A stretch of 64,000 nt of DNA from Candidatus Zhuqueibacterota bacterium (GCA_049322915.1 JBMOPW010000020.1:1-64000), one strand, 5' to 3'; counted from the first letter of the stretch, positions 99-63,286 are shown. Translations and numbers: made by a program. Notes: generated by a model from the sequence alone, not told the origin.

Positions 99-165
99 AA
101 TTAATCCTGTCTATCCCAAACATCCTGTTATCCTGTCATTCTTAACCACCCTGTGATCGGTTACT
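99..165. mobile_element. Right end of a MITE-like element (same family as 17494-17759); left end lies outside the window
   Basis: ATCCTGTTATCCTGTCA (122-138) followed by CCCTGTGATCGGTTACT (149-165), matching the right hairpin arm and right TIR at 17717-17760. Confidence 0.75.
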
Positions 166-259
166 GATTTAACATCAAATAATCTATGGTTCGACCTGTT
201 GGCTCGGGTTCAGCGTTCTCGGCGGATTGAACCGCTCCTTCATTTCTCCGGCAAATTAA

Positions 260-289
260 CCACACACGATCCTCGCGAATCGTGTGTGG
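260..289 (-). terminator. Stem-loop downstream of the FHA gene
   Basis: 11-bp perfect stem CCACACACGAT / ATCGTGTGTGG; no strong U-tract. Confidence 0.4.
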
Positions 290-322
290 CGTTTGGGGGA
301 CTGAATGGAGAGAACGAGGAGA

Positions 323-778
323 TCAGCTCAATACCACCTGAAATTTCAATCGGCCTAACATCAATTCATCGCCATCTGAAATGGGGCACGGCGTGTTCGG
401 CGCCAGTTTCTCTTTATTCAAAAAAGTGAGATTCACGGATTGCAGGTCTTCGATGAAATAGGTATCACCGTGGTGCGTGATGCGCGCGTGTTTGCGGCTG
501 ACTCCATCTTCCTCAGCGCCGTAGACCGTCAGTTCGATGTCCGGGAAAATGGAACTGACCGGGTCTTCGCGGCCCAGGATAATTTCATCTTTGTCCGGCA
601 GGGGTATCTCTTCGCCGGTTGCGGCGACGATCAGTTTCAACGGGACGATGGCGACGGAGGAAAGACTGTTGGCTCCAGCCGTGACCGGAACCAGCATCTC
701 ATCCAGATCAGCGCCGCAGTTTTCGCAGTACAGCGCGCCGTCCATATTCTCGGTGTTGCATTCTTGACAGATTATCAT
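323..778 (-). CDS. Zinc-ribbon + FHA domain protein
   Basis: N-terminal CQEC..CENC; FHA motifs LGR, VSRKHARI, DLQSVNLTFLN; GGAGG before ATG at 778. Confidence 0.9.
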   Translation of the reverse strand: MIICQECNTENMDGALYCENCGADLDEMLVPVTAGANSLSSVAIVPLKLIVAATGEEIPLPDKDEIILGREDPVSSIFPDIELTVYGAEEDGVSRKHARITHHGDTYFIEDLQSVNLTFLNKEKLAPNTPCPISDGDELMLGRLKFQVVLS

Positions 779-886
779 TGTGACCTCCAAAATGTTGGTA
801 ATTAAATCCTGGACTTATTGATATATAATGTTTTAGATGAATGACCAGTTAATATTTTGTCGCCTATATTATTATTGGACATAGGC

Positions 887-914
887 GTAGTGGACGGTCG
901 CGACCGTCCGCTAC
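887..914. repeat. GTAG-type REP palindrome
   Basis: GTAGTGGACGGTCG/CGACCGTCCGCTAC, 28-bp palindrome with one mismatch and GTAG/CTAC ends. Confidence 0.7.
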
Positions 915-1077
915 AGATAGAAAGAAGTATTGAATTTATTGCACATGATTTCAACGGGTCATTCATAAGTTTAATAATCCTGTTTCCAGATAAAAAATTC
1001 AAACTCAGGACGTGATTGGTTTTTAGTGGATTTGCCATTGAGTAATAGTTGGAAATTGGCATTTGCCTTTTGGAATT

Positions 1078-2325: not shown

Positions 2326-2375
2326 AGCTGTTACCTCCTGATTTAGTGCATTGACATGGGGTGATTCGACTCAGT

Positions 2376-4034: not shown

Positions 4035-4150
4035 GGGATTGCGCGTTCAGAATTCAGTTCAAAATTGGGATGAATTAATTCGTGCGACAGGGGAGGTGAA
4101 ACGTGAGTCCGGACATGCCGCCAGCTCGCGTTTCACTCCCAACTTCAGGA

Positions 4151-4831: not shown

Positions 4832-4885
4832 GACTTTTCCTCCAAAAATGAAATTGAGTGCAACATGGGTTGATGCACCTGTCTT

Positions 4886-17005: not shown

Positions 17006-17493
17006 AAGGGCACTGTGTGCGTTGTTGTTCACCGAAACGATGAAATGGAAAATTGACCGACAGAAATTGAATTTTGTACGCCTGGCGCCCATGCGCCAAT
17101 TCTGTCGGGAACGGCTAATCAAGGCGCGCCACAGATCCTTTGCATTCGGAATGGAGAAGCAAATTTGTCCCGGTCAGCGCGCTTTAATGTATTCTAATAT
17201 CGGAAGTAAAGGTAATTTCTTGATTCAAATTTTTCACAGACCCATTGCAGGTCACGCCCGGCAAAAAGATTGATCCGCCGTAAGTCTGCCAGCTAAATTG
17301 AGCGATTGGCTTTTGGCGTTAACAACAAAAACTATTAACCTTGATTTGAAGTTTCTCATACAAAATCAGGTTCGTTGATATTTGACGAATCGCTTGCACT
17401 ATTCAGGTTTAAAATTTAAAAGTTCCCGGTTCAAGGTTTACGAGAGAAAAGATGTTACTATTTGGCAATTACTCAGCTTCCGTATTCCAGAAG

Positions 17494-17759
17494 GTAACCG
17501 ATCACAGGGATTGAATGTTGTCAGGAGTTTTATTGACAGGATAACAGGATCGAAAGGATTTACAGGATAAATTTCTGGCTTTTATGTCTAATAAACATAG
17601 ACAATGGCTTCTCTGATAGCCTTGCCTGTTTCTTGAACAAAGATCACTTGACTATCAGACCCGTGCCTTGATCAACGAGACAAAAACCTAGATCAATTAT
17701 CATGTCCATCCTTAACATCCTGTTATCCTGTCAGCTTTTGCATCCCTGTGATCGGTTAC
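17494..17759. mobile_element. Composite MITE: 18-bp perfect TIRs enclosing an ACAGGAT-family hairpin
   Basis: GTAACCGATCACAGGGAT (17494-17511) / ATCCCTGTGATCGGTTAC (17742-17759); direct repeat TCCAGAAG at 17486-17493 and 17760-17767; inner 17-bp perfect IR 17534-17550 / 17717-17733. Confidence 0.85.
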
Positions 17760-17973
17760 TCCAGAAGCCGCTGAAGCGGTTGGTACAATGTTGAACCAGC
17801 GCCATGCTTCAGCATGGTGATATTTTGAACGCTGAACCAGACAACCTGCATGGCAACCGGGGGCTTGTATGTAACGCACTATTATTTCGTTAGCTGAGCG
17901 CTGCACGCTGACCGCTTATTTTACGTACCAATTAATTCACTGAGTACAAAGGAAGGTTGAAAGGAGAAAAGGA

Positions 17974-23933: not shown

Positions 23934-24294
23934 GGTTGCCTCAAAGTTTGGTGGCGAAATATGTCTCCGGGATTTGGAAATCGTAGCAGTTCATGAACTC
24001 ACGAAATATATAAGATCAGAACATCAATTTCAAGTAAAAGTTTTCGCATTGCTGCTCTTGCAACAGGAAAAGGCGCCGGGATCCGGGTGCAATGGCCGGC
24101 AAGCGCCGTTCACAGGTGGAGCGAAAATAGACTCGAAAGTGAATTCCTGGTTTGTTGGAGCCAAAGAGGCAGCAGCGGCGATGAGGCGCTTTTTTAGGGA
24201 GAGAGAACTTGTAGGTTTTTCCGGCGACTGGCACGACGACCGGCGCAATTGAAGCCGTTGCGATTCATCCATCTGGAGCGTGGCTGGTACATGG

Positions 24295-24346
24295 AAAAAA
24301 AGCCCTTTCAGTGGCCGATAAAAATCGCAGTGTCCACTGAAAGGGC
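24295..24346 (-). terminator. Intrinsic terminator
   Basis: 13-bp stem GCCCTTTCAGTGG / CCACTGAAAGGGC followed by T7 on the minus strand. Confidence 0.7.
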
Positions 24347-24354
24347 GGGAGGTA

Positions 24355-24693
24355 CTAATCGATCACAGTGCCGCTGATATCCTGAACTTCATCGTGCTGT
24401 TTGGGTTTGAAAAACTTGTCCTGGAATCTCTTTTTCATGTGCGCGTCGTGATTGTGCGAGTTCGTGTGCGGGAAAGATTTGAACAGGATATGAGCCAGCA
24501 CAATCAATCCCCATGCCTGCCAGAACGTAATCGTGGTCAGGCCGAAAATGTCCGGCATCAGCCAGTTCCACAGCCACATGACGATGAAGCCGAACAGCAG
24601 CGCCATGCCGGCGGCAAAGATGACCCCAAGAATCACCATCCCGATGATGGCGAAGATGCTTTTCGTTTTTTTCAAATGCTTGAATTTTTCCAT
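24355..24693 (-). CDS. Small membrane protein co-transcribed with an ECF sigma factor
   Basis: VMWLWNWLMPDIFGLTTITFWQAWGL; directly downstream of the sigma gene. Confidence 0.75.
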   Translation of the reverse strand: MEKFKHLKKTKSIFAIIGMVILGVIFAAGMALLFGFIVMWLWNWLMPDIFGLTTITFWQAWGLIVLAHILFKSFPHTNSHNHDAHMKKRFQDKFFKPKQHDEVQDISGTVID

Positions 24694-24702
24694 CTGACAC
24701 CT

Positions 24703-25251
24703 CTAAGTTTCTAACATGGTTTTTCGAATCTGAATTAATTTGCTCTGAAGAAATTGAACAGCATAGCGTTTCCGCGCGAGCAGGGTGTTCACAGACTCGC
24801 CGGTCTGCTCGGCCAGTTCGCGAAATGTTCTTCCTTCAACCACCTGCTGGATGAAGACGAATCGCTGTTTCTCCGGCAGTTCATCCACAGCGGCCCAGAT
24901 TGCGTTCACCAGAAAGTCCCGACTGTCGTCATCGAGATCCTCGGGGAATTGCTCGGCCAACACATCCTGGAATCGCAGGCCGTTTTCGGCCGGGGCGTCC
25001 AGCGACACCGTGGGCAATCGCCGTTTTCGATACCAATCGATGATCTTGTTTCTGGCCACAGTGAACAACCAGCCAGCCAGATTATCAATGGACTCCAGGA
25101 CATTCAGGCTGCTCATGGCCTGGACGTAGACATCCTGCAGCAAATCCTCGGATTCTTCCACTGAGCGGATTTTCGACCGGATGAAGGCGAACAGAATCGC
25201 GTGTTCCGCTTCGAAGCTTTGTCTGATCCTATGTTCTTGTTCAATTCTCAT
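24703..25251 (-). CDS. ECF-type RNA polymerase sigma-70 factor
   Basis: SEDLLQDV, WLFTVARNKIIDWYR, region 4 LPEKQR..ELAE. Confidence 0.9.
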   Translation of the reverse strand: MRIEQEHRIRQSFEAEHAILFAFIRSKIRSVEESEDLLQDVYVQAMSSLNVLESIDNLAGWLFTVARNKIIDWYRKRRLPTVSLDAPAENGLRFQDVLAEQFPEDLDDDSRDFLVNAIWAAVDELPEKQRFVFIQQVVEGRTFRELAEQTGESVNTLLARKRYAVQFLQSKLIQIRKTMLET

Positions 25252-25413
25252 TTCATTTACAATGACGTTGAGGGTGGAAAATTATTGTATTTTTTTTTAA
25301 AGAATAATCAAAAATCATGATTATGTCAAGAAAATTTCTTGGCTCGGAAAGAGGACTTAATTATTTCTTGCCATAAAAAAAGTACTTGCATTTTAAATAA
25401 AAAAGCTTATTTT

Positions 25414-25430
25414 ATAATAACAATTATTAT
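25414..25430. promoter_or_regulatory. Fur/Per-type operator upstream of the regulator
   Basis: ATAATAA-CAA-TTATTAT 7-3-7 palindrome. Confidence 0.7.
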
Positions 25431-25453
25431 CTAAAAATGAATCGGGAATATCA

Positions 25454-25897
25454 ATGGATCAGAATACGCGAACTGAACTGCTCAACCAGTTTTTTGATAA
25501 GTGTCGACAGGCTAAATTGAGTGTGACGCCGCAACGCCTGGCAGTCTATAAAGCATTGGTGAATCACGACAATCACCCGAGCCCGGACATGATTTACAAA
25601 GACATGCTGCCGGATTTCCCGACCATCTCATTCGCTACGGTTTATAAAATACTGGAGACGTTCGAACAACATGGAATCATTTCAAAGGTAACTTCGCTGC
25701 ATAATACATTGCGATACGATCCGTTGAAAGAGCGCCACCATCATATTATTTGTTCGAAATGCAAAAAAATCATTGATATAAAAAGTAAGGATCTGGATGA
25801 ATTGCCGATTCCCCCGGAAGTAAAAAAAGGCAATCGACTCATCGATTTTTCCGTTCATTTCAATGTGATTTGCAGCGAGTGTCGGAAAGGAGACTAA
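25454..25897 (+). CDS. perR: Fur-family transcriptional repressor, probably PerR
   Basis: TPQRLAV, HPS, ATVYK, RYD, HHHIICSKC, CSEC; next to catalase. Confidence 0.8.
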   Translation: MDQNTRTELLNQFFDKCRQAKLSVTPQRLAVYKALVNHDNHPSPDMIYKDMLPDFPTISFATVYKILETFEQHGIISKVTSLHNTLRYDPLKERHHHIICSKCKKIIDIKSKDLDELPIPPEVKKGNRLIDFSVHFNVICSECRKGD

Positions 25898-25912
25898 ATT
25901 TTTTTGCCTATC

Positions 25913-25933
25913 ATATAATAATAATTATTATAT
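25913..25933. promoter_or_regulatory. Fur/Per-type operator upstream of catalase
   Basis: ATATAATAA-TAA-TTATTATAT palindrome. Confidence 0.7.
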
Positions 25934-25985
25934 AAAATAAATAACTAAACAATATAGTTTCAAATTTCATTGAAGGAGAATGCAC

Positions 25986-27428
25986 ATGAGTAAAGAAAAA
26001 AAATTAACCACAGCAGCCGGCATCCCGGTGAGCGATAGTCAAAATTCGCTCACAGCCGGCGAACGCGGTCCCACGTTAATGCAGGACCATATTTTATTGG
26101 AGAAGTTAGCGCATTTCAATCGGGAGCGAATTCCGGAGCGGGTGGTTCACGCCAAAGCGGCCGGAGCGCACGGTATCCTGACAATCACGAACGATATCAC
26201 CAGATACACGAAAGCGAAGATATTCTCGAAGGTCGGGAAAAAGACGGAGATGTTTGGTCGGTTTTCAACAGTTGCCGGTGAAAAAGGATCGGCGGATACA
26301 GTTCGCGATGTCCGCGGCTTTGCGCTGAAATTCTACACTGAAGAAGGCAACTGGGATCTGGTTGGCAACAACACGCCGGTGTTCTTCATTCGGGACGCCA
26401 TGAAATTCCCTGACTTCATTCACACGCAAAAAAGGGTTCCCCAAACAAATTTACGCTCGGAAACCATGTGGTGGGATTTCTGGTCACAGGTGCCGGAATC
26501 TCTGCACCAGGTCACCATCCTGTTTTCGGATCGCGGCACGCCCAAAGGAATTCCGTACATGAACGGCTACGGGAGTCACACCTATAGCTTCATCAGCGCC
26601 AGGAATGAGCGGTTTTGGGTGAAGTTTCATTTCAAAACAAAACAGGGCATTCAAAATATGACGCCGCAGGAAGCGGATGAAATTGCCGGCAAGGATCCTG
26701 ACTATCATACCCGTCAGTTGTTTGAGATGATCGAGCGCGGTGAATATCCGAAATGGACGTTCTATGTGCAGGTGATGCCGGAATCAGCGGCAGCGAATTA
26801 TCGCTGGAATCCATTCGATTTGACAAAAGTGTGGCCTCACGCAGATTATCCACTCATCGAAGTGGGCACGATGGAATTGAACCGAAATCCGGAAAATTAC
26901 TTTGCCGAGGTGGAGCAGTCCGCATTTTCGCCGGCCAATATTGTGCCCGGAATTTCTTTCTCGCCCTGCAAGATGTTGCAGGCGAGAATTTTCGAGTACG
27001 CAGACGCCCATCGCTATCGCCTCGGCGTGAATTATGAGAGCCTTCCGATCAACCGCCCCAAAAACGTTGAGGTCAACAATTACCAGCGCGATGGTTATAT
27101 GCGATTCGATGGAAATGCCGGCGCGGCTGTGAATTATGAGCCAAACAGCTTTGGCGGACCCAAAGAGGATTCTGCATTCAGCGAACCACCGTTAAAAATA
27201 TTTGGCGATGCGGATCGGTACGACCAAAAGCGGGGTGTTGACGATGATTATGTTCAGCCGGGCAACCTGTTTCGGCTGATGTCGCCGGAAGAGCAGCAGC
27301 GACTGATCAAAAACATTGTCGGCGCGCTGAAAAATGTACCAAAGGAAATTCAAAGTAAAATGGTCGATCATTTCAGTAAAGCGGATAAGGCGTACGGAGA
27401 CGGTGTGGCCAAAGGGTTGGGACTTTAA
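25986..27428 (+). CDS. katA: Monofunctional haem catalase
   Basis: [17 protein letters not shown] active site, RIFEYADAH proximal ligand; AAGGAG RBS. Confidence 0.95.
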
Positions 27429-27474
27429 CGATAATCATAGCATTTTTCAAGCTGCAATACCATGAATTAATTTT

Positions 27475-27513
27475 CGCCCCGATGTCGTGATGACATATCG
27501 GGGCGTTTTTTTT
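27475..27513 (+). terminator. Intrinsic terminator after catalase
   Basis: CGCCCCGAT...ATCGGGGCG followed by T8. Confidence 0.85.
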
Positions 27514-27624
27514 GCAATGAAAAATCCCTATAATTTGGGATTGAATCGTATAAATGTTACATCAATTTAAAAAAATAGAAATAGATTGATTTTTTAATAT
27601 TCTTTTGTTATTTTTGCTTTAACT

Positions 27625-30519: not shown

Positions 30520-30578
30520 TATTTCCATTTATTTTATTAAACGTGTGTTACCCTGAAAAAAACTATCCTGAGGTCGTT

Positions 30579-32035: not shown

Positions 32036-32045
32036 AATGAATCTG

Positions 32046-32150
32046 ATAAAACACGGATGACGCGGATAACGCGGATTCGCACGGATAAATGAACCGATGC
32101 CTTTTTTATATCCGCGAAAATCCGTTCAATCCGTGTCATCCGCGTTCTAT
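32046..32150. repeat. CRCGGAT-family long hairpin element
   Basis: Left arm of four CRCGGAT subunits, right arm ending ATCCGTGTCATCCGCGTTCTAT; same family as the 51403 array. Confidence 0.8.
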
Positions 32151-32177
32151 GTTTTAAATTTTTAATGGAGACGATTG

Positions 32178-33821: not shown

Positions 33822-33823
33822 AT

Positions 33824-33890
33824 TTTGGAGTGATTTGATCCCGCCTTCTGCGGGACAAATCATACGGCGACACGGTCGCCGCACTCCAAA
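33824..33890. repeat. REP-like hairpin interrupted by a nested smaller hairpin
   Basis: TTTGGAGTG..CGGCGAC-ACG-GTCGCCG-CACTCCAAA with a 32-nt palindromic insert at 33833-33864. Confidence 0.7.
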
Positions 33891-33917
33891 CGACTCAAAA
33901 AATAAGGAATTTTTACC

Positions 33918-36590: not shown

Positions 36591-36609
36591 CAAGAAATAA
36601 AATCAATAA

Positions 36610-36880
36610 AAGAAATTCTTTCTCGATCTATTAAAACGAGGAAATGTGAATAAACTATACTTCACAGGCATGTTCACCCACGGCGAATCGGAGTTTTTCA
36701 TCAGTTAAATCGATCCGGTCAGCCATACCGTGCGTAAATATTAGCCCGATTTCCTGGTTCAGGACAACTCGGGCAATTGGACTTTGTTCGAGATCAAAGC
36801 AGATTGCATGATCGACGATCCAGTGAATGCTGCCAAAGAACGATATGCCGCCCAAATGGGATTCGAGAATCAGATGCGGT
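36610..36880 (+). pseudogene. Decayed C-terminal fragment of a second restriction (Res-like) nuclease
   Basis: Frame from 36601 reads LYFTGMFTHGESEFFIS*IDPVSHTVRKY*PDFLVQ..LFEIK with two in-frame stops and a PD..ExK motif. Confidence 0.7.
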
Positions 36881-37262
36881 GCTGTCCAGTATCGATGTCG
36901 GATTGATTTTGAATTATTCTCCATCGCAAGTCAGTCAACTGCGCCAACAGTGGGAGAAAGATCACCAGGAAACCTTGCCATCCAGGGGCAGCTACCACGA
37001 TTTGGGGCGGACGTTTACTCATAAACAGCAAATCGTTGCCTATCATCTTGAGGGCTTGATGCCATCAGAAATCGCCCGTAAAACAGATCATGATCCTGCC
37101 TGTATGGATCGCTATATCAGAGATTTTGAAAGAACAGTCCCATTCTTCGAAGAAGGTCAACCCATTGCCAAGATTGCCTTCTACACGCGGCTGAGTGAAT
37201 CGTTGAAAAAAGAATACCGAAAAATTTATGAACAAACAATTGGCTGCTATAAAAAGACATAG
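36872..37262 (+). pseudogene. DUF1670-like C-terminal fragment, 5'-truncated (mobile-element associated)
   Basis: LPSRGSYHDLGRTFTHKQQIV and EIARKTDH..DRYIRDF resemble DUF1670; no credible start, abuts the Res relic. Confidence 0.55.
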
Positions 37263-37547
37263 TTTCTGATAATTCCTTTTGAGTAGGGGTCAATTGATAC
37301 TATTGAATATTGAAATAAAACTTAAGCTCTTATTTTTGAAATTCGTCCGGCGTGCGATGCCTTTATGCATCGCAGACATCGCACTCCACGGTAACATTTC
37401 ATTATATCCCATCGACCGCTTTTCATTTTAGAATTTTAGGTAACGTTTTTATAAATTAGTCGTTCCCGCCATGCATTGAAAAAAGCGAACGGCCAGACGC
37501 TCCCTGTGTCCGCCAAAATCTACCCCGAATTATCCGACACGCGGCGC

Positions 37548-40415: not shown

Positions 40416-40634
40416 CTCTTGCTCCTCTCTGTAAATGTCCGTTCCGGCAGATTGCGCCGGAGATTGTTATTCCTGAAAATGAATGTCAGGTCGAAGATAA
40501 TTCGTTTCTGTCCGAAAATACCAAAATTAGCTAAGGGGTTGATATTCTCAAACTTCATTACTTCAGACCTCATCTCCTAAAACCGTTCTTACCCTGCGGG
40601 CAAGAAGGGGAACATCTGTTCTCCCTCTCCTTTT

Positions 40635-40910
40635 AGGCTTACCCTTACCCATATCTTTTCTAACGCAGAGACCGCAGAGGTACGCAGCGTTTTGGTATTG
40701 AAAAAAAGCTGTTTGCAAATTTATGAGACCAGGTATTTTCCTGGTTATTCTGGTCTTCTGTGACTATGGGTGAACATGATTTTCATTGGTTGATTGAAAA
40801 TTTTAATATCACTCAGACCAATTCAAAGATAGTCTTTGCTCTGCGCCCTTCGCGACCTCTGCGTTTCATTTGATTGTAATATCCCCCAACGTATGGGTGT
40901 GGATTAGCCT
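40635..40910. mobile_element. Composite MITE (imperfect 20-bp TIRs, CGCAGAG-family hairpin cargo) inserted into a REP-like element
   Basis: AGGCTTACCCTTACCCATAT vs reverse complement AGGCTAATCCACACCCATAC (15/20); TTTT(A) on both flanks; inner AACGCAGAG.. / ..CTCTGCGTT. Confidence 0.65.
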
Positions 40911-41107
40911 TTTTAGACAGGGTTGGGGTGAGGTCAATATTAGCAGTTTTCAGACTGACACTAATTCGTGACAAAAGAACCAAGCTAGTCGAGATCGATG
41001 CTGCCCGTCCCGGTGCAGAACGCAGGGACGGGCAGCACGCGCGAAGATCGTCATGCGGTATTCATTCAGCTTGCGAAGCCCAGCCATTCGGGATTCGGAT
41101 GGTCAGT

Positions 41108-51032: not shown

Positions 51033-51377
51033 ATGGATCAATTAGTCAGAATTTTCAAGGCGCTGGGCGATAAGAATCGGCTGCGCATCGTGAAGATGTT
51101 GCAATGCCGATCGCTGTGCGTCTGCGAAATAACGGCAGTTCTGGAACTGGCCACGTCGACAGTTTCTAAACATTTGAGTATTTTGAAAGAAGCGGAAATT
51201 ATCACCGATAAAAAAAGCGGTAAGTGGGTGGATTATCATCTGGTAGCCGATCCCAAAAATATTTTCGTCACCGCCTTCCTGCCGCTCATCACCTTCTGGC
51301 TGAATGATGACGAGCAGATGAAAGCCGATCTGGAAAAATTAAAATCGACCAATCGGATAGAATTATGCAAAATATAA
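51033..51377 (+). CDS. arsR: ArsR/SmtB transcriptional repressor
   Basis: FKALGDKNRLRI, LCVCEI metal-binding box, STVSKHL. Confidence 0.92.
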   Translation: MDQLVRIFKALGDKNRLRIVKMLQCRSLCVCEITAVLELATSTVSKHLSILKEAEIITDKKSGKWVDYHLVADPKNIFVTAFLPLITFWLNDDEQMKADLEKLKSTNRIELCKI

Positions 51378-51402
51378 TCCGGGTGGTAGCGTCAGAAAAG
51401 AC

Positions 51403-52108
51403 ATAGAACGCGGATGACACGGATTACACTGATCTTCGCGGATTTTTATTTGGTCCTTATCCGCGTAAACCCGCGTCATCAGCGTAATCCGCGTTCTATA
51501 AAATCTTTACCTATTTTCCCAGGTACCCAACTACCTAAAACATTTCGACATTTTGCTGAAGAAATATTTGAAGTAACCAGCGCTGGATTGGAGCGCGGAT
51601 GACACGGATTACACTGATCTTCGCGGATTTTTATTTGGTCTTTATCCGCGTAAACCCGCGTCATCAGCGTAATCCGCGTTCTATAAAATCTTTGCCTATT
51701 TACCCAGTTACCCAATTATCTAAAACATTTCGACATTTTGCTGGAGAAATATTTGAAGTGACCAGCGCTGGATTGGAGCGCGGATGACACAGATTACACT
51801 GATCTTCGCGGATTTTTATTTGGTCTTTATCCGCGTAAACCCGTGTTATCAGCGTAATCCGCGTTCTATAAATTCTTTGCCTATTTACCCAGGTACCCAA
51901 CTACCTAAAACATTTCGACATTTTGCTGGAGAAAAATTTGAAGTGACCAGTGCCGGATTGGAGCGCGGATGACACGGATTACACTGATCTTCGCGGATTT
52001 TTATCTGGTCTTTATCCGCGTAAACCCGCGTCATCAGCGTAATCCGCGTTCTATAAAATCTTTGCCTATTTACCCGGTTACCCAATTACCTAAAACATTT
52101 CGACATTT
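51403..52108. repeat. Tandem array, about 3.8 copies of a 185-bp unit (hairpin + 8-mer run + arsC fragment)
   Basis: Units start at 51409, 51594, 51779 and 51964; near-identical copies. Confidence 0.95.
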
Positions 52109-52135
52109 AACGAAGCAAATGAAAGAGCAAATTTG

Positions 52136-52561
52136 ATGAAGGAAAAAATACTCGTCTTATGCACCGGCAACTCCTGCCGCTCCCAGATGGCTGAGGGATA
52201 TTTTCGACATTTTGCTGGAGAAAAATTTGAAGTGACCAGCGCTGGCTTGGAGCCGAGTGTGGTCAATCCGAAAGCCATTCAGGTGATGCTGGAAGATGGC
52301 GTGGATATTTCCAGCCATACGTCCAAAGATGTGGAGCAATTCATTGGGCAAAATTTTAATTATATCATTACGGTTTGTGACAATGCGAAGGAACGCTGTC
52401 CGTTTTTCCCAGGACAGGCGGAGCGGATTCTCTGGAGTTTTGTGGATCCGGCCGGTGCGCAAGGGAGCGAAGCAGAAATTTTTGCGATGTTCCGAAAAGT
52501 GAGGGATCAAATTCGGGAAAGGATAAAAGAGTTTTTGAATGAATTTGAATTGTCAATTTAA
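52136..52561 (+). CDS. arsC: Thioredoxin-dependent arsenate reductase (LMW-PTP fold)
   Basis: CTGNSCRSQMAEG P-loop, CDNAKERCP, DP. Confidence 0.93.
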   Translation: MKEKILVLCTGNSCRSQMAEGYFRHFAGEKFEVTSAGLEPSVVNPKAIQVMLEDGVDISSHTSKDVEQFIGQNFNYIITVCDNAKERCPFFPGQAERILWSFVDPAGAQGSEAEIFAMFRKVRDQIRERIKEFLNEFELSI

Positions 52562-52565
52562 CATC

Positions 52566-52598
52566 ACCCTTTCTAAGGTTTGCTACCTTTGAAAGGGT
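52566..52598. repeat. Short REP-like hairpin between arsC and acr3
   Basis: ACCCTTTCTAAGGT / ACCTTTGAAAGGGT. Confidence 0.5.
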
Positions 52599-52625
52599 AA
52601 AAGATAAAAAAATTTTGGAGGAACA

Positions 52626-53672
52626 ATGAGTAGTCATGTAGCCCAACGACTGTCATTTCTGGATCGATTTCTGACGCTGTGGATTTTTCTGGCGATGGCG
52701 GTTGGCGTTGGTTCAGGTTACTTCTTTCCCAGCATTGTGGATTTCTGGCATAAGTTTCAGGTGGGAACGACCAATATTCCCATTGCTATCGGATTGATTT
52801 TAATGATGTACCCGCCGCTGGCAAAAGTGAAGTATGAAGAATTGGGACAGGTTTTTCGCAATTGGAAAGTGCTGGGATTATCACTGGTGCAGAACTGGAT
52901 CGTGGGTCCAGTGTTGATGTTCCTACTTGCAATCGTTTTTCTGCGCGGCTATCCCGAATACATGTACGGCCTGATCCTGATCGGGCTGGCGCGATGTATC
53001 GCCATGGTGATCGTCTGGAACGAACTGGCAAAGGGCGATTCTGAATACGCCGCCGGCCTGGTAGCGTTCAATTCCATTTTCCAGGTGCTGTTCTTTTCAG
53101 TGTACGCCTACGTGTTCATCACTATTCTGCCGACGTGGTTTGGCCTGAAAGGAACCACCGTGGAAATAACCATCGGGCAGATCGCCGAAAGCGTTTTCAT
53201 CTATCTGGGTATCCCGTTCATCGCCGGTATCATCACTCGATTTTCACTCATCAATCTGAAAAATAAAGAATGGTATCACACCAAATTCATCCCGAAAATT
53301 AGCCCCATCACGCTGATCGCCCTGTTGTTCACCATCATTGTGATGTTCTCACTGAAGGGCGAGTTCATCGTGCAACTGCCGCTGGATGTGGTGCGCATCG
53401 CCATTCCACTATTGATCTATTTTGTGGTGATGTTTCTGCTCTCCTTTTTTATGAGCAAAAGGGTCGGCGCCAATTATGCCCAATCGGCAACGCTGTCGTT
53501 CACTGCTGCCAGCAATAATTTCGAGCTGGCAATTGCCGTAGCAGTGGCTGTTTTCGGCATCCAATCGGGCGAGGCGTTTGCAGCGGTAATCGGTCCGCTG
53601 GTGGAAGTCCCTGCGTTGATTAGTCTGGTGAATGTGGCATTATGGTTCCAAAAGAAGTATTTTCGGAAATGA
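52626..53672 (+). CDS. acr3: ACR3-family arsenite efflux transporter
   Basis: [46 protein letters not shown]. Confidence 0.95.
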
Positions 53673-53737
53673 AATTCAAAGAAGCCAAGCTTCTGAAATG
53701 AGTTATTTCTTAACGACTGAGCAGGGGAAAAACAATC

Positions 53738-53976
53738 ATGATTATAAAAGTTTTAGGCACAGGTTGTCCCAACTGTTTAAAGCTGGAAGAACTGGAAAAA
53801 AAGCGGTTCAAGAGCTGAATATAAACGCCGAATTTGTTAAGGTTAAAGAAATTGATAAAATTTTAGAGTATGGAATCGCGCGAACTCCTGGCCTGGTGAT
53901 CAATGAAATAGTGAAATCATCAGGAAGAATTCCTACCATTGATCAGATCAAAACCCTTATTCATGAATCGCTGTGA
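53738..53976 (+). pseudogene. Small redox-active disulphide protein (MTH895/ArsE-like), split by a frameshift at an A7 run
   Basis: MIIKVLGTGCPNCLKLEEL in frame 0 continues as KKAVQELN..TPGLVIN..SSGRIP in the -1 frame at 53796-53803. Confidence 0.8.
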
Positions 53977-53997
53977 AAACGAAAAGGAAATTTGAAT

Positions 53998-54663
53998 ATG
54001 AAAAAAGTTTATCTCTTATTATCCCAGATTATGCAATTGCCACAAAGACCCCAAGGCTCAAAGAAAAAATTTACAAAATATTATAATCATTTTTTGAGAA
54101 AAACTTTTTCACTTTTTTATCCTTTAATTTTAAAAAATAAACCAAGTTTTTTCTTTGTGATTCTTGGCGCCTTCGAGACGTTGAGGCAATTTTTTAAATT
54201 GCATAATTTGGGATTATTAGTGGGACTATGGATTTTGTTTGCTTTCGCATGTGGCAAGAACGATGCCCAGACGACAACTGAGTCCTCAACGAAAGTAGCT
54301 CAAACTGATTCGGTGAAAATAGATTCGACAAAAACCGATTCAACACAAGCATCAACTCCTAAAGTCACTTTTGTCGAACTGGGATCGGTCAATTGTGTCC
54401 CCTGCAAAATGATGCAGCCTGTGATGAAGGCCATCGAAGAAGAATTCGGCGATCAAATCGAAATCGTGTTTCATGATGTCTGGAAAGATCGGGCGCCAGC
54501 GGAAAAGTATCGCATTCGAATCATTCCCACCCAGGTCTTTCTTGATGAGTCGGGCAAAGAATTCCTTCGCCATGAAGGCTATTTTCCTAAGGAAGAAATT
54601 GAAAAATTGCTGACCGATAAAGGTTTGAAGAAAAAAAATCCGATCAAACCAAACAAAAGTTAG
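53998..54663 (+). CDS. Thioredoxin-family lipoprotein with an in-frame MITE in its signal peptide
   Basis: ELGSVNCVPCKMMQP, IPTQVF; removing the insert gives MKKVYLLLVGLWILFAFA-C. Confidence 0.85.
   Translation: MKKVYLLLSQIMQLPQRPQGSKKKFTKYYNHFLRKTFSLFYPLILKNKPSFFFVILGAFETLRQFFKLHNLGLLVGLWILFAFACGKNDAQTTTESSTKVAQTDSVKIDSTKTDSTQASTPKVTFVELGSVNCVPCKMMQPVMKAIEEEFGDQIEIVFHDVWKDRAPAEKYRIRIIPTQVFLDESGKEFLRHEGYFPKEEIEKLLTDKGLKKKNPIKPNKS
54022..54213. mobile_element. Composite MITE, 192 bp, 17-bp TIRs, TTATTA target-site duplication
   Basis: TCCCAGATTATGCAATT / AATTGCATAATTTGGGA (16/17); TTATTA at 54016-54021 and 54214-54219; inner hairpin 54037-54189. Confidence 0.9.
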
Positions 54664-54671
54664 GGGGCTGG

Positions 54672-55367
54672 ATGCTGACAAGTCTTTTTACCTGGCTAAC
54701 CAATGTCATTCAAGGTCAACCATACTTTGCCATTTTCGCTGCTTTTCTCTGGGGAATTTTGAGCATCCTGCTCAGCCCCTGTCACCTGTCCAGTATTCCG
54801 CTGATCATCGGCTTCATCGATAAGCAGGGACATGGCTCGGTCAAACGGGCGTTCTGGCTCTCGCTGTTGTTTGCCGTTGGAATTTTGGTAACGATTGCCG
54901 CCATCGGCATCATCACTGCCTCGCTGGGCAGACTTATGGGCGATGTTGGCAATGTCGGAAATTACCTGGTGGCGATTGTCTTTTTCCTGGTGGGGCTATA
55001 CCTGCTTGATATAATACCCGCACTGTGGAGTGGCGCCACAGGGACGAACGTAAAGCAAAAAGGGCTGGCTGCGGCCTTTTTATTAGGCTTGATCTTTGGA
55101 ATTGGACTGGGTCCCTGCACATTTGCCTACATGGCGCCAATGTTGGGAGTGGCGTTTCAGGTTGCCGCCACCCAACTGCTGTTTGCCATTACGCTGTTAG
55201 CCGCCTTTGGCGTGGGGCATTGCTCGGTGATTGTGTTGGCAGGCACACTGATCGAAAAAGTCCAGCACTATTTGAATTGGACTGAAAAAACAAGAGGGGC
55301 GATCATCGTTCGCCGAATCTGTGGCGTTCTGGTTATATTAGGTGGAATTTATTTGATAATAAATTAG
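54672..55367 (+). CDS. ccdA: CcdA/DsbD transmembrane disulphide-transfer protein
   Basis: LSPCHLSSIP and GPCTFAY cysteines, 6 TM helices. Confidence 0.85.
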   Translation: MLTSLFTWLTNVIQGQPYFAIFAAFLWGILSILLSPCHLSSIPLIIGFIDKQGHGSVKRAFWLSLLFAVGILVTIAAIGIITASLGRLMGDVGNVGNYLVAIVFFLVGLYLLDIIPALWSGATGTNVKQKGLAAAFLLGLIFGIGLGPCTFAYMAPMLGVAFQVAATQLLFAITLLAAFGVGHCSVIVLAGTLIEKVQHYLNWTEKTRGAIIVRRICGVLVILGGIYLIIN

Positions 55368-55513
55368 GACACGGATTCAACTGATCCAACAGATTTGTAT
55401 GGAATTTTTCTGACTGTTGTAAAAATTGAAATGTAACAGGCAAATTATTTCTTTCGTCTCACATCTGCCGTCTCACGTTTCACTTTTAAAGCGATCTGTT
55501 CAATCGGTGTTCC
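55367..55513. repeat. Degenerate CRCGGAT-family hairpin
   Basis: GGACACGGATTCAACTGAT... / ...ATCTGTTCAATCGGTGTTCC. Confidence 0.5.
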
Positions 55514-55535
55514 ATAAAAAATTATAGGAGCAACA

Positions 55536-56708
55536 ATGAAAGACCGTACCAAATTAACCATCATCATTACGACATTTTTAGCTGCGTATTTTATTCCATT
55601 CAGTAAAACGAATGTTCAAAAAGCGCTGCTGGAAGCCCTTTTCATGCTGCAGGACTATGCCCGTGAGCATGTGCTGTTCTGCCTGGTGCCAGCGTTCTTC
55701 ATCGCTGGTGCGATCTCTGTTTTTGTGAATCAGGCAGCCGTCCTGAAATATTTTGGCGCCCAGGCAAATAAAATCCTATCGTACAGCGTGGCATCAATTT
55801 CAGGGACGATTCTGGCGGTCTGCTCCTGTACGGTGTTGCCGCTGTTTGCCGGAATTTACAAACGCGGTGCAGGCATTGGTCCTGCCACGGCATTTCTATA
55901 TTCAGGTCCGGCCATCAATGTGCTGGCGATTATCCTGACTGCACGCGTTTTGGGACCAGAATTGGGCATTGCCCGAGCCGTGGGCGCTATCGCTTTTTCA
56001 GTGATCATCGGGTTGGCAATGGCATTCATCTATCGCAAAGAAGAAAAAGAGCGGAATGCAAAATCGATCAATTTCGCCCAGGGCATGGAAGAAGCCATGC
56101 GGCCGCTATGGAAAAATGGGTTATTCTTTTTTACTCTGGTGCTGATCCTCATCTTTGCCGCCTGGGGCAAGCCGGCCCAGCCAGTGGGTTTCTGGAATTT
56201 CGTTTTTCAGATCAAATGGTATCTCACCATCGTCTTGCTCGGCTTGCTGGGCTGGCAACTGTGGCGCTGGTTTAAAAAGGATGAATTGAGCCAATGGGTG
56301 AGCCAGACCTGGTTCTTCGCCTGGCAGATTCTACCGCTATTGTTCGGTGGCGTGCTCGTTGCTGGATTCTTGATGGGCCGACCCAATACCGATTTGGGCA
56401 TCATCCCTTCCAGTTGGATTCAAACCGCCGTCGGGGGCAATTCCCTGTGGGCGAACTTATTGGCCTCTGTTGCTGGTGCTCTGATGTATTTCGCCACCCT
56501 GACCGAAGTTCCCATTCTGCAGGGGCTGCTCGGCAGCGGCATGGGTAAAGGCCCTGCGCTGGCGTTGCTACTGGCAGGACCTGCGTTGAGCCTGCCCAGC
56601 ATGCTGGTTATTCGCAGCGTGATCGGTACAAAAAAGATGCTAACTTATATTGCGCTGGTGGTTATCATGGCCACTGTGACGGGGATGGTGTTTGGAGGAA
56701 TTTTTTGA
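55536..56708 (+). CDS. ArsP/DUF318 permease
   Basis: HVLFCLVPAFFIAG, AVCSCTVLP, FLYSGPAIN, YFATLTEVP. Confidence 0.85.
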   Translation: MKDRTKLTIIITTFLAAYFIPFSKTNVQKALLEALFMLQDYAREHVLFCLVPAFFIAGAISVFVNQAAVLKYFGAQANKILSYSVASISGTILAVCSCTVLPLFAGIYKRGAGIGPATAFLYSGPAINVLAIILTARVLGPELGIARAVGAIAFSVIIGLAMAFIYRKEEKERNAKSINFAQGMEEAMRPLWKNGLFFFTLVLILIFAAWGKPAQPVGFWNFVFQIKWYLTIVLLGLLGWQLWRWFKKDELSQWVSQTWFFAWQILPLLFGGVLVAGFLMGRPNTDLGIIPSSWIQTAVGGNSLWANLLASVAGALMYFATLTEVPILQGLLGSGMGKGPALALLLAGPALSLPSMLVIRSVIGTKKMLTYIALVVIMATVTGMVFGGIF

Positions 56709-59383: not shown

Positions 59384-59500
59384 CAGATCATTAATTTATA
59401 GATAGAGCATCGATGCCTGTCGTCACGGTTTCATGCTGCAAATACTAAATATCGCTACGAGAATCAGTTTAACTTAAGATGTTGAAAGCATTCTCTAAAA

Positions 59501-60064: not shown

Positions 60065-60218
60065 ACGCAAGGTTTTTGGAAACCGCGGGTCTTATATTCA
60101 GGAGGTTGGATAAAATAACTCACCCTTTTGCTTTATCCGATAGGCTGCAAACCACGAAAATGAACATCATCTCTGAGGAGGTGAATTTATCCTACCTCCT
60201 TTAGAACAGGAAAAAAAG

Positions 60219-60695
60219 ATGAAACACAAGCTGATCCGGAAAAAACTGCTGCGTTATCTGGATAATGATTTGCCAGAAAATGAGCAGCAGGAGATACAAG
60301 CGCACATGATGGAATGTCCGTCGTGTCGCGCGCATCTGCAATGGCTAAAGTCTTCATGGCAGACGGAGCAATCGATTTCGCGGATTACGGCGCCGCCATT
60401 TTTATGGACACGGTTTATAGCTCGCTTGAATAGAGAGGAACGATCGCCCATGATTGTGCGAATCGCCGGGCAATTTCTTCAGTATGCTCGTCCCGCCATC
60501 GTCATGGCGGTCATCGTTCTGATGGTTTATATTGGTGTGCAATTCGGTCAAAAAATCATTCTACCGAAAACGGAATCCACGCTATCGGGCGTTCAAACGT
60601 CACAGATCCGGACAGAATTTGGCATGGATTATTTTTCCGCATTACCGCCGGGGTCGGTGGGCGAGCCGATTATACCATTGACTGAAAATAAATGA
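60219..60695 (+). CDS. Zinc-finger anti-sigma factor
   Basis: HMMECPSC (HxxxCxxC) and one TM helix. Confidence 0.85.
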   Translation: MKHKLIRKKLLRYLDNDLPENEQQEIQAHMMECPSCRAHLQWLKSSWQTEQSISRITAPPFLWTRFIARLNREERSPMIVRIAGQFLQYARPAIVMAVIVLMVYIGVQFGQKIILPKTESTLSGVQTSQIRTEFGMDYFSALPPGSVGEPIIPLTENK

Positions 60696-60703
60696 GGGTG
60701 TCG

Positions 60704-61186
60704 ATGAAAAAAAGAATTTTACTCTACCTGGCTATCCTTATTACTCTGGTAAATTTATCAGCGCTGGGCGCGATCCTGTATCAGCGTTATAAAATTGCTC
60801 AGCCCTGCGAATCGGGAAACGGTTTTGACAGGGTGAAAAAACAGGTGAAACTGACAGCCGTTCAGATCGAACAGTTCCAGGTCTATCGACAGGTTTTTCA
60901 CGCCGAGCTGGATTCGCTGGATCGATTACTGGCAACGGAACGCCGTTTACTGGCAGAAGAAATCCGTGCTGTCAAACCGGACAGCGCCCGAATCGCCGCA
61001 GTCGTGGAGGGGATTGGTCAATTGCAGCAGCAATCCCAATATCGGGTCATTGAACATTTTTTTCAGATCAAACAAATCCTGACGCCCGAGCAGCAGGAAC
61101 AGTTTTTCAATATTGTGCTGGAACGCTTCGTTGGCCGGCAGCAATTTCCCGGCTTATCACGAATGCGACAGGATGAGATGAATTAG
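60704..61186 (+). CDS. Spy/CpxP/ZraP-like periplasmic metal-sensor or chaperone
   Basis: N-terminal TM, LTAVQ and ILTPEQ (LTxxQ) motifs. Confidence 0.8.
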   Translation: MKKRILLYLAILITLVNLSALGAILYQRYKIAQPCESGNGFDRVKKQVKLTAVQIEQFQVYRQVFHAELDSLDRLLATERRLLAEEIRAVKPDSARIAAVVEGIGQLQQQSQYRVIEHFFQIKQILTPEQQEQFFNIVLERFVGRQQFPGLSRMRQDEMN

Positions 61187-61340
61187 GGAGTGAGATAAAA
61201 TAATTCTATCATTCACCATCTTAAGGGACGTGAATTAAATAACTCTCCCTTTTATGAATGATCCTTGCTCATAGAAAGTCAAGATTGCTTTATCAAATGA
61301 GTAACTTAATTAATTCACAGTCCTAAACTTTTTATTTATT

Positions 61341-62729
61341 ATGATTGATAAACGTGGGAAAGTTCGCTTTTCTCACTCCCTAAATGAAATTCAGGAGAAC
61401 AAAGCCTTGATCAACAGGAAAGAATTAGCGCTGATCTGGATGACGATTATTCTTACTGCGATCCCCATATTCGCGCAGCAGTCGGAACCGCCGTTATTAA
61501 CGTTAGAACAGTGCCTGAGCATCGCACTCGAAAATAATCCCCGGCTACTGGCATCGCACTCATCGGTTCAGGAGAGCGAAGCCCGGGTCGACGAGATGCG
61601 GGCTGGTTTTTATCCCATGCTTGATTTTAATGCATCTGCCAGCCGCTCTTTTTACGAGATAAAAACTGGCAGCAGCGGTTCAACCACTCTCGATAATATG
61701 AGAGCTGGTATTTACGCCCATTATCCAATTTTCCAGGGATTTCAAACAGTGGCTTCAACGAAAGCCGCGCAAGCTGGCTATCAAGCCAGTCAGGCGCAGT
61801 ATCGCAGCGATGAGGCGGAGCTGGCGCTGAACGTCACCGAAGCCTATTACCGCTTGCTGCAGGCCGAACGTCTGGCTACCGTTGCTGAAAAGTCGCTGGA
61901 GCGCGCGCACATGCATTTGAGCTATGCCAATGCCCGATTTGAAACCGGGTTGGCTTCCCGATCCGATATTCTGAAAGCAAAGGTGGAACACTCCAATGCA
62001 GAATTGGCGTTGATTCGCGCCCGGAATGTTCATCTGGCAGCGGCAGGTCAGTTGAATGGATTGCTGGGTCGCAAAGCTTATCACCTCATTCGCATCGTGG
62101 ATAATCTGGATAGCGACGTTTCCGGAATCCATCGTGATTCGCTCCTGGTTCGCCCGGTTGTCCAGCGATTGGTTGAGATGGCGTATCAATCGCGTCCGGA
62201 ATTACGGAAAATGGAACAACAGGTGAAAGCCCAGCGGTCGGCGATCCGGGTGGCAAAAAGCGACTATTTTCCATCCCTTGCTCTAGATGGCAATTATACC
62301 TATTCCGGCGACGCGACATCGAATTTACAGGGTTCAACTTATATTGGACTCAGCCTGAGTTTTCCGTTGTTCAGCGGTTTTGCCCGTCCAGCGCGGGTAG
62401 CACAGGAAAATTGGGCGCTGCACGGTATTGAACAGCAACACCTGGCATTGCAGCTTCAGATTAGCATAGAAGTGTGGAACGCCTATCTTGCGGTCAAGGA
62501 AGCAGCAGAGCGGATTGGCAACAGCAAAATTTTTTATGAAAACGCACTGGAAAATTCCAGCATTGCCGAAGGGGAATACCGCGAAGGCGTGGGCTCGATG
62601 CTGGATGTGATCGATGCCCAGACCGCGCTGGTAACTGCAGAACAGAGCGCTATTGAAGCGTTAGCAGATTATAAAATTGCTTTGGCTAATCTGAACCGGA
62701 CAACCGGCTTTAATTGGAAGAATGATTGA
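61341..62729 (+). CDS. TolC-family outer-membrane efflux protein
   Basis: LTLEQCLSIALENNP, repeated YP..L, GVGSMLDVIDAQ; true start may be TTG at 61407. Confidence 0.88.
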   Translation: MIDKRGKVRFSHSLNEIQENKALINRKELALIWMTIILTAIPIFAQQSEPPLLTLEQCLSIALENNPRLLASHSSVQESEARVDEMRAGFYPMLDFNASASRSFYEIKTGSSGSTTLDNMRAGIYAHYPIFQGFQTVASTKAAQAGYQASQAQYRSDEAELALNVTEAYYRLLQAERLATVAEKSLERAHMHLSYANARFETGLASRSDILKAKVEHSNAELALIRARNVHLAAAGQLNGLLGRKAYHLIRIVDNLDSDVSGIHRDSLLVRPVVQRLVEMAYQSRPELRKMEQQVKAQRSAIRVAKSDYFPSLALDGNYTYSGDATSNLQGSTYIGLSLSFPLFSGFARPARVAQENWALHGIEQQHLALQLQISIEVWNAYLAVKEAAERIGNSKIFYENALENSSIAEGEYREGVGSMLDVIDAQTALVTAEQSAIEALADYKIALANLNRTTGFNWKND

Positions 62730-62771
62730 TCGGCGCATGATTTTTTAAGGGGTTCATTGATGGCTAAAAAT

Positions 62772-63286
62772 TGGCAGAATAATCGGTCGGCAGAATGATT
62801 TTGTGAAAATGGATTGTTGGCAATTAACAATGAACTTCGTCATCAGATAAATTTTAAACATGATCAAGCTTGCTTTGCTGGGGTGACAGCAACAAAGAAA
62901 TAATTATTCTGCCGTGAAATCATTCTGCCATAATAACTGAATCATTAATTGGCAGAATAAGTGGTCGGCAGGATGATTTTGTGAAAATGGCTTATTGGCA
63001 CTTAACAATGAACATCGTCATCAGATAAATTTTAAACCTGATCGCCCTTGTTTCGCTGAAGTGATGGCAACAAAAAAATAATTATTCTGCCGTTAAATCA
63101 TTCTGCCAAAATAACTGAATCATTAAATGGCAGAATAATCGGTCGGCAGGATGATTTTGTGAAAATGGCTTATTGGCACTTAACAATGAACATCGTCATC
63201 AGATAAATTTTAAACCTGATCGCCCTTGCTTCGCTGAAGTGATGGCAACAAAAAAATAATTATACTGCCGTGAAATCATTCTGCCA
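62772..63286. repeat. Tandem array of three 178-bp units, each a GGCAGAAT-family hairpin
   Basis: Units start at 62772, 62950 and 63128; TGGCAGAATAA..GGCAG(A/G)ATGATTT / AATTAT(T/A)CTGCC..AAATCATTCTGCCA. Confidence 0.95.

Follow-up and report, generated by a model that had tools for sequence, protein, structure and literature searches.

Nested miniature transposable elements and word-armed hairpin cassettes in a Candidatus Zhuqueibacterota genome

Contig C20 of a Candidatus Zhuqueibacterota genome (GCA_049322915.1; assembly of 6.25 Mb in 45 contigs) contains, within its first 64 kb (a stretch of 64,000 nucleotides here called the window), several families of hairpins, the arms of which are built of short repeated sequence words. 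These hairpins and the inverted repeats around some of them are probably a patchwork of nested non-autonomous mobile DNA and not one coordinated system, with hairpin cassettes carried passively in miniature transposable elements with inverted repeats (MITEs). A first-pass annotation of the window had described five hairpin families, three of them enclosed by terminal inverted repeats (TIRs) with flanking direct repeats. All five are present, and the three enclosed ones are multi-copy and bordered by target site duplications (TSDs) of 8 bp (17494-17759), 4 bp (40635-40910) and 5 bp (54023-54212). The bounds of the first two elements were retained, those of the last were redrawn from 54022-54213, and the element at 40635-40910 was found to lie in a further MITE (40504-40960). 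No transposase is encoded among the 48 open reading frames (ORFs) of the window, as judged by Pfam and in line with the earlier description.

The genome to which the window belongs is referred to as G000 and its relatives as G001 onwards (a set of 31 genomes). Copy numbers were obtained by BLAST of the window elements against the whole genome. Element families were tallied by family-wise searches after a de novo census, covering word hairpins as well as long inverted repeats (5 and 39 loci), had proved unsuitable; it missed known copies, its criteria being over-strict or ungapped. A scan of the window for inverted arms built of words returned 10 loci, compared to 1.65 on average (range 0-6) when 20 dinucleotide shuffles were scanned; this is a rough control, since two of the 10 loci look like chance and the CGCAGAG and CACAAAG families were missed. 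Features for which no strand is given are unstranded.

The first of the enclosed elements is a 266-nt MITE (17494-17759) with the TIR GTAACCGATCACAGGG and an 8-bp TSD, TCCAGAAG, at 17486-17493 on the left and 17760-17767 on the right. It surrounds a gene-less hairpin of ACAGGAT words, the left arm of which (17534-17570) is complementary to 17697-17733 (37 nt, 84%, repeat finder), and the element as a single strand folds more stably than shuffled sequences (z -8.8). Three copies were found in the genome, of which one of the two beyond the window is divided between two contig ends. The same TIR and the same words recur at the start of the window. Its first 165 bases correspond to the right part of a 584-nt unit cut by the contig start (window 1-164 compared to unit positions 421-584, 99.4% identity) and comprise the first 12 codons of a GxxExxY gene (5' end at 1-37, minus strand), the right ACAGGAT-word arm (99-138, repeat finder) and the TIR GTAACCGATCACAGGG (149-164, minus strand). 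In the complete unit, the TIRs are outermost, the ACAGGAT-word arms follow inside and the GxxExxY gene is innermost (126 amino acids, unit positions 77-457, minus strand). The TIR GTAAYYGATCACAGGG forms the ends of families of 584, 266, 247 and 148 nt in G000, with clear 8-bp TSDs in most cases.

Sequence identity is 98.3-99.0% among four full copies of the 584-nt unit and 91% for a fifth; in four of the five, the TSDs agree at 7 or more of the 8 positions. A copy number of about 15 is suggested by the contig ends that stop in the unit, ten in its left and eleven in its right end. In approximately half of the copies, the GxxExxY gene is broken by a common hairpin insertion of 65 nt at unit position 369. 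Amplification of the unit therefore took place after this break and, since half of the copies lack an intact gene, the units were most likely moved in trans through their outer ends. The insert (arms CACCCCGTGTAATA and TATTACACGGGGT) was seen at G000:C7:98780-99428, C15:16378-16821 and several contig ends, and is itself a repeat at which contigs end. With insertion sequence (IS) ends around a passenger gene and no transposase, the 584-nt unit has the composition of a mobile insertion cassette (MIC).

At 17494-17759 and in the unit at window 1-165, the outer ends are, by their sequence features, of the IS66 type, since they start with GTAA, are accompanied by 8-bp TSDs and are found around an IS66 transposase in the relative G024. 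According to two descriptions of the IS66 family (PMC11946415, PMC12898284), inverted repeats starting with GTAA and direct repeats of 8 bp are typical of it, and the element 17494-17759 and the 584-nt unit show both traits. This assignment is new information. The 16-mer TIR is present in 18 of the 31 genomes, the largest numbers being found in G015 (136 copies), G004 (94) and G003 (69), while a reversed control pattern gave none. The full-length IS with the same TIRs, the search for which had been proposed in the first-pass annotation, is a 2438-nt element (G024:C5 782-3219) with GTATCCGATCACAGGG at both ends (one mismatch to the 16-mer). It encodes a 468-amino-acid protein with DUF6444, zf-IS66 and DDE_Tnp_IS66 domains (PF03050, E 1.2e-32), and no ACAGGAT words are found at its ends. 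The transposase family PF03050 was detected in eight of the 31 genomes, among them G015, G004 and G003, which are the richest in TIR copies. The G024 element (locus L039) also harbors a DruA-like (Druantia) ORF (PF14236, E 3.2e-39) upstream of the transposase gene, and is located within an IS4-type (DDE_Tnp_1_4) transposase gene.

The second enclosed element is part of a nest. A host MITE termed X (40504-40960, TIR GTGTCTGTCCGAAAA-like, about 177 nt without its insert) is bordered by a 7-bp TSD (ATAATTC at 40497-40503, CTAATTC at 40961-40967) and contains, at its central palindrome, the MITE E2 (40635-40910, TIR AGGCTTACCCTTACCCATA; ends of this type begin with AGGCTTACCC). E2 has TTTT on both sides (40631-40634 and 40911-40914) and encloses CGCAGAG-word arms (left 40664-40689, partner 40839-40863) with words at steps of 9-10 nt. 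Seven X copies elsewhere in the genome are without E2 and represent empty sites. They place E2, with an overlap of 4 nt, at the palindrome CTCC-TTTT-AGGAG in the centre of X. The TIRs of the window elements are thus multi-copy and the TSDs consistent, and empty sites exist for the element at 40635; the results that would have refuted the first-pass annotation were therefore not obtained. About 20 E2 copies (85-94% identity) were found by BLAST in the genome; they differ in word number by steps of 9 nt, and the long ones contain the further nested MITEs Y and Z. The ends of X, Y and Z gave 75, 99 and 120 genome matches, respectively. Pairs of Z-type ends (CCTGAATTATTCATGA) are also found 2.5 kb apart at G000:C14:855690-858212 and 0.87 kb apart at C26:164124-164990; these are possibly longer relatives of the MITE Z, which has about 60 copies and the TSD CTAA.

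E2-type ends are present in five of the 31 genomes, and the matches in a wider contig scan are mostly due to chance. Repeated E2-type ends were seen at contig ends of two metagenome-assembled genomes (MAGs), one of Chloroflexota (L101, L104, L113, L158, L163) and one of Bacillota (L103, L127, L130). An autonomous partner was not reached in these two MAGs, the interiors being unassembled and the search ending at the repeats. The flanks of the ends are conserved as well in the Chloroflexota MAG (GTAGCCCGTCC...), which suggests target-specific insertion there.

The third enclosed element, E3 (54023-54212, TIR CCCAGATTATGCAAT), is bordered by the 5-bp TSD ATTAT (54018-54022 and 54213-54217) and has arms of CACAAAG-type words at 54039-54063 and 54153-54187. 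BLAST detected about eight diverged copies in the genome. Copies in G000, G004 and G006 have the TIR CCCAAATAATGCAAT in common and 5-bp AT-rich TSDs such as TTTAA.

The hairpins themselves are connected to small genes. A link to GxxExxY genes had been put forward in the first-pass annotation as a hypothesis and is borne out by the arms of these genes. The protein of the 584-nt unit matches TIGR04256 ('GxxExxY protein') with E 5.4e-41 and 139.6 bits (cut-off 35), and 21 matches to PF13366, many of them fragments, were found in G000. GxxExxY genes in this genome are bordered by ACAGGAT, CRCGGAT, CGCAGAG and CAGGAT-type arms. Examples are a gene in a cluster of CRCGGAT hairpins (C34:451790-452125), two genes with CGCAGAG arms outside E2 (C5:28729 and C19:95490), one adjoining a tandem array of CAGGAT-type hairpins (C13:111106-111396) and one with ATCCT words (C1:78382-78720). 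Except for the 584-nt unit, the GxxExxY cassettes of G000 are single-copy. Among the relatives, in which GxxExxY genes are found in 26 of the 31 genomes, an inverted-repeat score of at least 30 was obtained beside 17 of 29 scorable GxxExxY loci compared to three of 106 shifted controls. The arms at these loci consist of about three words of approximately 9 nt of the type CRCxxxx, and the word changes by locus (CGCAGAG, CACAGAG, CACGAAG, CGCAAAG, CACGAAT, CACGGAT, CAGGAT and GCTAATT). Word arms also flank two of the three genes for four-helix-bundle proteins (PF05635) in G000. The equally hypothetical link to genes for transposases associated with repetitive extragenic palindromes (REP-associated tyrosine transposases, RAYT) was not sustained: all four Y1_Tnp genes are without word arms, their inverted-repeat scores of 18-22 corresponding to background.

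Word-hairpin clusters and tandem arrays are dense beside the GxxExxY genes at G000:C34:451449-452700 and C13:110800-111060, and the arms there have received insertions of smaller GC hairpins (GCGGAACGTCCGCC type). The PF05635 genes at G000:C20:203685-203999 and C26:184381-184701, annotated as 23S_rRNA_IVP, have word arms with a period of 7-8 nt (TCAGCGT... and GATGGCGGATGCCAGAT...), so that small genes of two unrelated kinds are carried between word arms.

The GxxExxY protein is, according to its structure model, a predicted nuclease of the PD-(D/E)XK fold. The model (pLDDT 92.9) has its best PDB match in the Cas4 protein SSO0001 (E 2.5e-4, TM 0.61), followed by Hjc resolvases and lambda-type exonucleases, while a sequence search of the PDB with the protein gave no real match. 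The residues G22, G24, E27, Y30, D66, E76 and K78 are retained; among them, D66, E76 and K78 recur in 27-29 of 29 sequences, D66 and K78 being invariant and E76 nearly so. A 2012 survey of the PD-(D/E)XK superfamily listed PF13366 with unknown function. Among the papers listed in a literature search, none was by title or abstract devoted to GxxExxY hairpin cassettes. The class of word-arm cassettes appears to be unpublished, while the kinds of element involved (MITEs, MICs and nested repeats) are already known.

Whether the outer and the inner layer belong together can be read from the contents of elements with the same ends. For the IS66-type ends, the interior varies widely, and ends and word cargo are separable. 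ACAGGAT arms with a gene are found between such ends in G000 (584 nt) and G004 (565 nt), and gene-less ACAGGAT arms in G000 (266 nt), G003 (231 and 127/156 nt) and G023 (113 nt). Other words occur in G003 (CACAGAA arms, 151 nt) and G015 (CCTTATT/AAGGT arms, 474 nt), while small hairpins without words are enclosed in G000 (247 nt), in several families of G004, in G015 (157/181 nt) and in G001 (about 180 nt). Conversely, a GxxExxY cassette of G025 has ACAGGAT arms and no TIR; its protein is 65% identical to that of the 584-nt unit and the closest to it in a sample of 30 GxxExxY loci. At none of these 30 loci was an IS66-, E2-, E3- or X-type end found within 500 nt. E2-type ends and word cargo are separable as well: the ends enclose CGCAGAG words in G000 and G007 and an unrelated interior in G006, located in the same kind of palindromic target. 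Of the two-layer mobile system proposed in the first-pass annotation, the separable layers of TIRs with TSDs and of words thus hold, while no functional system and no active capture or targeting became apparent.

The remaining families of the window are not enclosed by TIRs. A hairpin of CRCGGAT words at 32046-32150 has four 9-nt words per arm and is located between Fic and DNA methylase genes, and a degenerate hairpin of this type with a 110-nt loop (55367-55512) lies between genes for a DsbD-like protein and an ArsP permease. The region 32044-32150 folds with z -3.5 compared to shuffles and 51403-51499 with z -4.65; folding is weak for 55365-55514 (z -1.8). The same words form a tandem array on the plus strand (51403-52108, bounded at 51409-52108 by the repeat finder), which consists of 3.8 units with a length of 185 nt and lies between arsR-like and arsC-like genes. 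A second array on the plus strand, of 2.9 units of 178 nt (62769-63292), is built of GGCAGAAT words and is located between genes for an outer-membrane efflux protein and an HlyD-type protein. Its unit is a weakly folding hairpin (z -1.95), the loop of which measures about 95 nt and the words of which are 16-17 nt apart. The array is unique in G000 (BLAST), and its arms belong to a family of naked hairpins that is dispersed in 11 of 30 relatives, frequently next to word hairpins of other kinds. Both head-to-tail arrays of the first-pass annotation are hence real, although CRCGGAT hairpins are for the most part scattered: 27 arms of the left type and 26 of the right type were found throughout the genome.

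The arrays do not represent a tandem amplification of naked hairpins as such, as had been assumed, and are better described as generic segmental duplications. Each 185-nt unit consists of the CRCGGAT hairpin, 41 nt and a 52-nt copy of the arsC-like (LMWPc) gene, the source of which is located at 52202-52253 (plus strand). An 11-nt direct repeat, TTTCGACATTT, is found at 52098-52108 and 52202-52212, and the unit 51410-51594 is exactly 51965-52108 joined to 52213-52253, which is the 3' copy as it now stands without the 104 nt that separate the 11-mers. The array would therefore have arisen from a tandem duplication reaching from the hairpin into the gene and a deletion between the 11-mers, which by its sequence is generic recombination without transposition of the hairpin. 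A diversity-generating retroelement or a retron as the source of the repeated arsC piece was rejected, since the differences between copies are, judged by eye, not adenine-specific and no reverse transcriptase is encoded nearby.

The following course of events would account for these elements. The hairpins with arms of two to four short words at steps of about 9 nt would be gene-less copies of hairpin cassettes, a complete cassette consisting of a gene for the putative GxxExxY nuclease (PD-(D/E)XK fold) or for a four-helix-bundle protein between arms of the same kind. The outer layer of TIRs and TSDs would correspond to ordinary MITEs derived from DDE transposons, that happen to have the hairpin as interior cargo. 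A transposase acting in trans would read only the outer ends, and the cassette would hitch-hike. The MITEs of G000 seem to land preferentially in the palindrome centres of other repeats, which would lead to nests up to four deep with word arms inside each element, and both tandem arrays would be due to local segmental duplication by slippage or unequal exchange. No evidence for a functional coupling of the layers was found; passive hitch-hiking and nesting suffice.

Several results weigh against this reading. No IS66 transposase was detected in the G000 assembly at 96% completeness, so that the recent spread of the 584-nt unit is without a driver found here, and the small IS contigs of G000 (IS4-like, IS91, IS21-like, DDE_5 and ISAzo13) have no ends in common with the MITEs. 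PF03050 was not found in G001 or G006 either, although both hold the TIR. Transposase and TIRs were found on one contig only in G024, the other IS66 matches being located on short contigs without ends. For E2-type ends, no autonomous partner was found in G000 and no adjacent transposase in the five of 31 genomes with such ends; for E3-type ends, no partner was found in the genomes searched. The CACAAAG-type arms accompany the E3 TIR in every complete copy from three genera, which gives no evidence of separable layers in this family. The combination of ACAGGAT words and IS66-type ends recurs in four genomes (G000, G003, G004 and G023); it may go back to one old capture, or could reflect a non-random affinity. 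Finally, no joint shows a filled/empty polymorphism in the contigs of the sequencing runs X1 and X2, and none was seen between strains. Run X1, which is probably the source sample, yielded contigs that end at the MITE nest and at the array, and run X2 short pieces of low depth.

In a rival reading, there is a single layer and the word arms are subterminal sites of the transposase that reads the TIR, as in IS21- or Tn7-like ends; the elements would then be ordinary MITEs with complex ends and without any separate cargo. Besides E3, in which the TIR abuts the word arm and both co-occur in all complete copies, the 148-nt IS66-ended family is in agreement with it, as its TIR continues directly into GTTCA words, and so are the ACAGGAT words, which in four genomes are separated from the IS66-type end by a like distance (25-40 nt). 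Yet the transposase-bearing element of G024 has the TIR and no words, the IS66-type TIR is also found with three other word types and with none, the same words border GxxExxY genes without a TIR, and E2-type ends occur both with and without CGCAGAG words. Subterminal sites were hence rejected for the IS66-type and E2-type ends, and as a general account this reading is very improbable. That the hairpins are kept by the host between operon genes, as terminators, mRNA stabilisers or protein-binding sites, with mobility being incidental or past, is even harder to believe. All copies of the window are intergenic, several of them in operons (ars, efflux pump and restriction-modification genes), and the relatives have intergenic sites at which word hairpins from different families are clustered. 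Against a host function, the families occur in many copies and have TSDs and empty sites, the word sequences change from locus to locus, copies interrupt genes and other repeats, and no Rfam match was obtained in the window.

A more active relationship between the layers would be given if cassettes homed into the interiors or loops of MITEs and IS by means of their nuclease, or if MITE transposases were drawn to hairpins, resulting in a three-tier parasitism of cassette, MITE and IS. E2-type insertions at palindrome centres in G000, G006 and G007, the four kinds of word hairpin inside IS66-ended MITEs and the small hairpins inserted within cassettes and MITEs at many places are consistent with such a coupling, as is the resemblance of the nuclease model to structure-specific nucleases such as Hjc. 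It is nevertheless unlikely: none of the 30 sampled GxxExxY loci is wrapped by TIRs, many IS66-ended MITE families are without a word hairpin, no MITE backbone was seen in two versions, one holding a word hairpin at a given internal position and the other lacking it, and a pair of 372 and 474 nt in G015 looks like a deletion between word repeats. Somewhat less doubtful, if still improbable, is the idea that word-arm cassettes (with GxxExxY or four-helix-bundle genes) form an undescribed selfish class that uses MITEs as vehicles and loops as landing pads, with a non-random affinity between the three tiers and a nuclease that would act on the cruciform of its own arms. The MITEs would in this case be moved by an IS66-type transposase that is absent or distant, and nests of several levels would build up at the loops. 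Passive carriage of cassettes in nested MITEs is preferred here.

The hairpins of the window are all intergenic with respect to the Pfam-scanned ORFs, and several are located within operons. They are flanked by gene pairs encoding Fic and a methylase, ArsR and an ArsC-like protein, two thioredoxin-type proteins, a DsbD-like protein and ArsP, and an outer-membrane efflux protein and an HlyD-type protein. Rfam and tRNA scans of the window gave no match. The region 24000-37300 has a low GC content (0.42-0.49 compared to about 0.53 elsewhere), encodes an SNF2 helicase, Fic, an N6/N4 DNA methylase and a ResIII helicase, and is probably a restriction-modification or defence island. An arsenic-type row at 51033-56708 encodes ArsR, a low-molecular-weight phosphatase/ArsC-like protein, an SBF/ACR3-like carrier, thioredoxins, a DsbD-like protein and an ArsP permease; four of its intergenic gaps hold a repeat element. 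Exact empty sites could not be drawn from G001, which belongs to the same genus: coding DNA is about 70% identical, intergenic DNA cannot be aligned and the element is absent there.

The confusing intergenic repeats of an uncultured phylum can be explained as nested MITEs and hairpin cassettes, which aids annotation; about 21 contig ends of the G000 assembly fall in a single 584-nt unit. For the widespread GxxExxY cassettes, trans-mobilisation in IS66-ended MITEs with 8-bp duplications would be a concrete and testable route of spread, for which, as these data show, an intact nuclease gene is dispensable. Elements with the same ends and different cargo, or with the same cargo with and without ends, provide natural experimental pairs.

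Mobile insertion cassettes are known from other families, MIC231 being one of the IS4 family. Both a MIC and the 584-nt unit carry a passenger gene, but the passenger is a candidate selfish unit here (word-arm hairpin and GxxExxY gene) and not a gene of benefit to the host. The three window elements of 266, 276 and 190 nt are MITEs in being short, multi-copy, bordered by TIRs and TSDs and without a transposase. MITEs and MICs (PMC3129680) are likewise short, transposase-less elements with IS-type TIRs and TSDs, present in many copies and moved in trans by the cognate transposase. A difference is that the cognate IS for the IS66-type ends was found in a relative only and not in the G000 assembly. 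Within the IS66 family, the ISBst12 group as described in PMC12898284 is the most similar: the ends found here likewise start with GTAA and are accompanied by 8-bp repeats, and the G024 element has its transposase domains in a single ORF. Canonical IS66 elements have the accessory ORFs TnpA and TnpB, while the G024 element is without them and carries a DruA-like ORF instead. The published consensus start is GTAAGCG, compared to GTAACCG or GTAATTG here.

The cassettes are also reminiscent of REPs and their pairs (REPINs) with RAYT genes, in which (PMC3337134, PMC3116915) a small gene is found between inverted palindromic repeats and gene-less copies are dispersed in intergenic regions. The gene product is a Y1 HUH transposase there and a predicted PD-(D/E)XK nuclease here. 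Unlike in REPINs, the cassette arms consist of tandem words of 7-9 nt that differ by locus, and the four Y1_Tnp genes of G000 are not flanked by them. Intervening sequences of 23S rRNA in Leptospira and Coxiella contain an ORF for a four-helix-bundle protein ('S23p') between inverted arms. The PF05635 genes with word arms are alike in this respect, but the copies described here are located outside rRNA genes and some are wrapped by transposon ends. Insertion into palindromes is known from IS1397 and ISKpn1, which insert into the loops of REPs (bacterial interspersed mosaic elements, BIME), and nested small dispersed repeats were reportedly described in cyanobacteria by Elhai and co-workers in 2008. 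Landing in palindrome loops is common to these systems and to the elements of G000, while the ends differ and the nest found here comprises four elements (X, E2, Y and Z).

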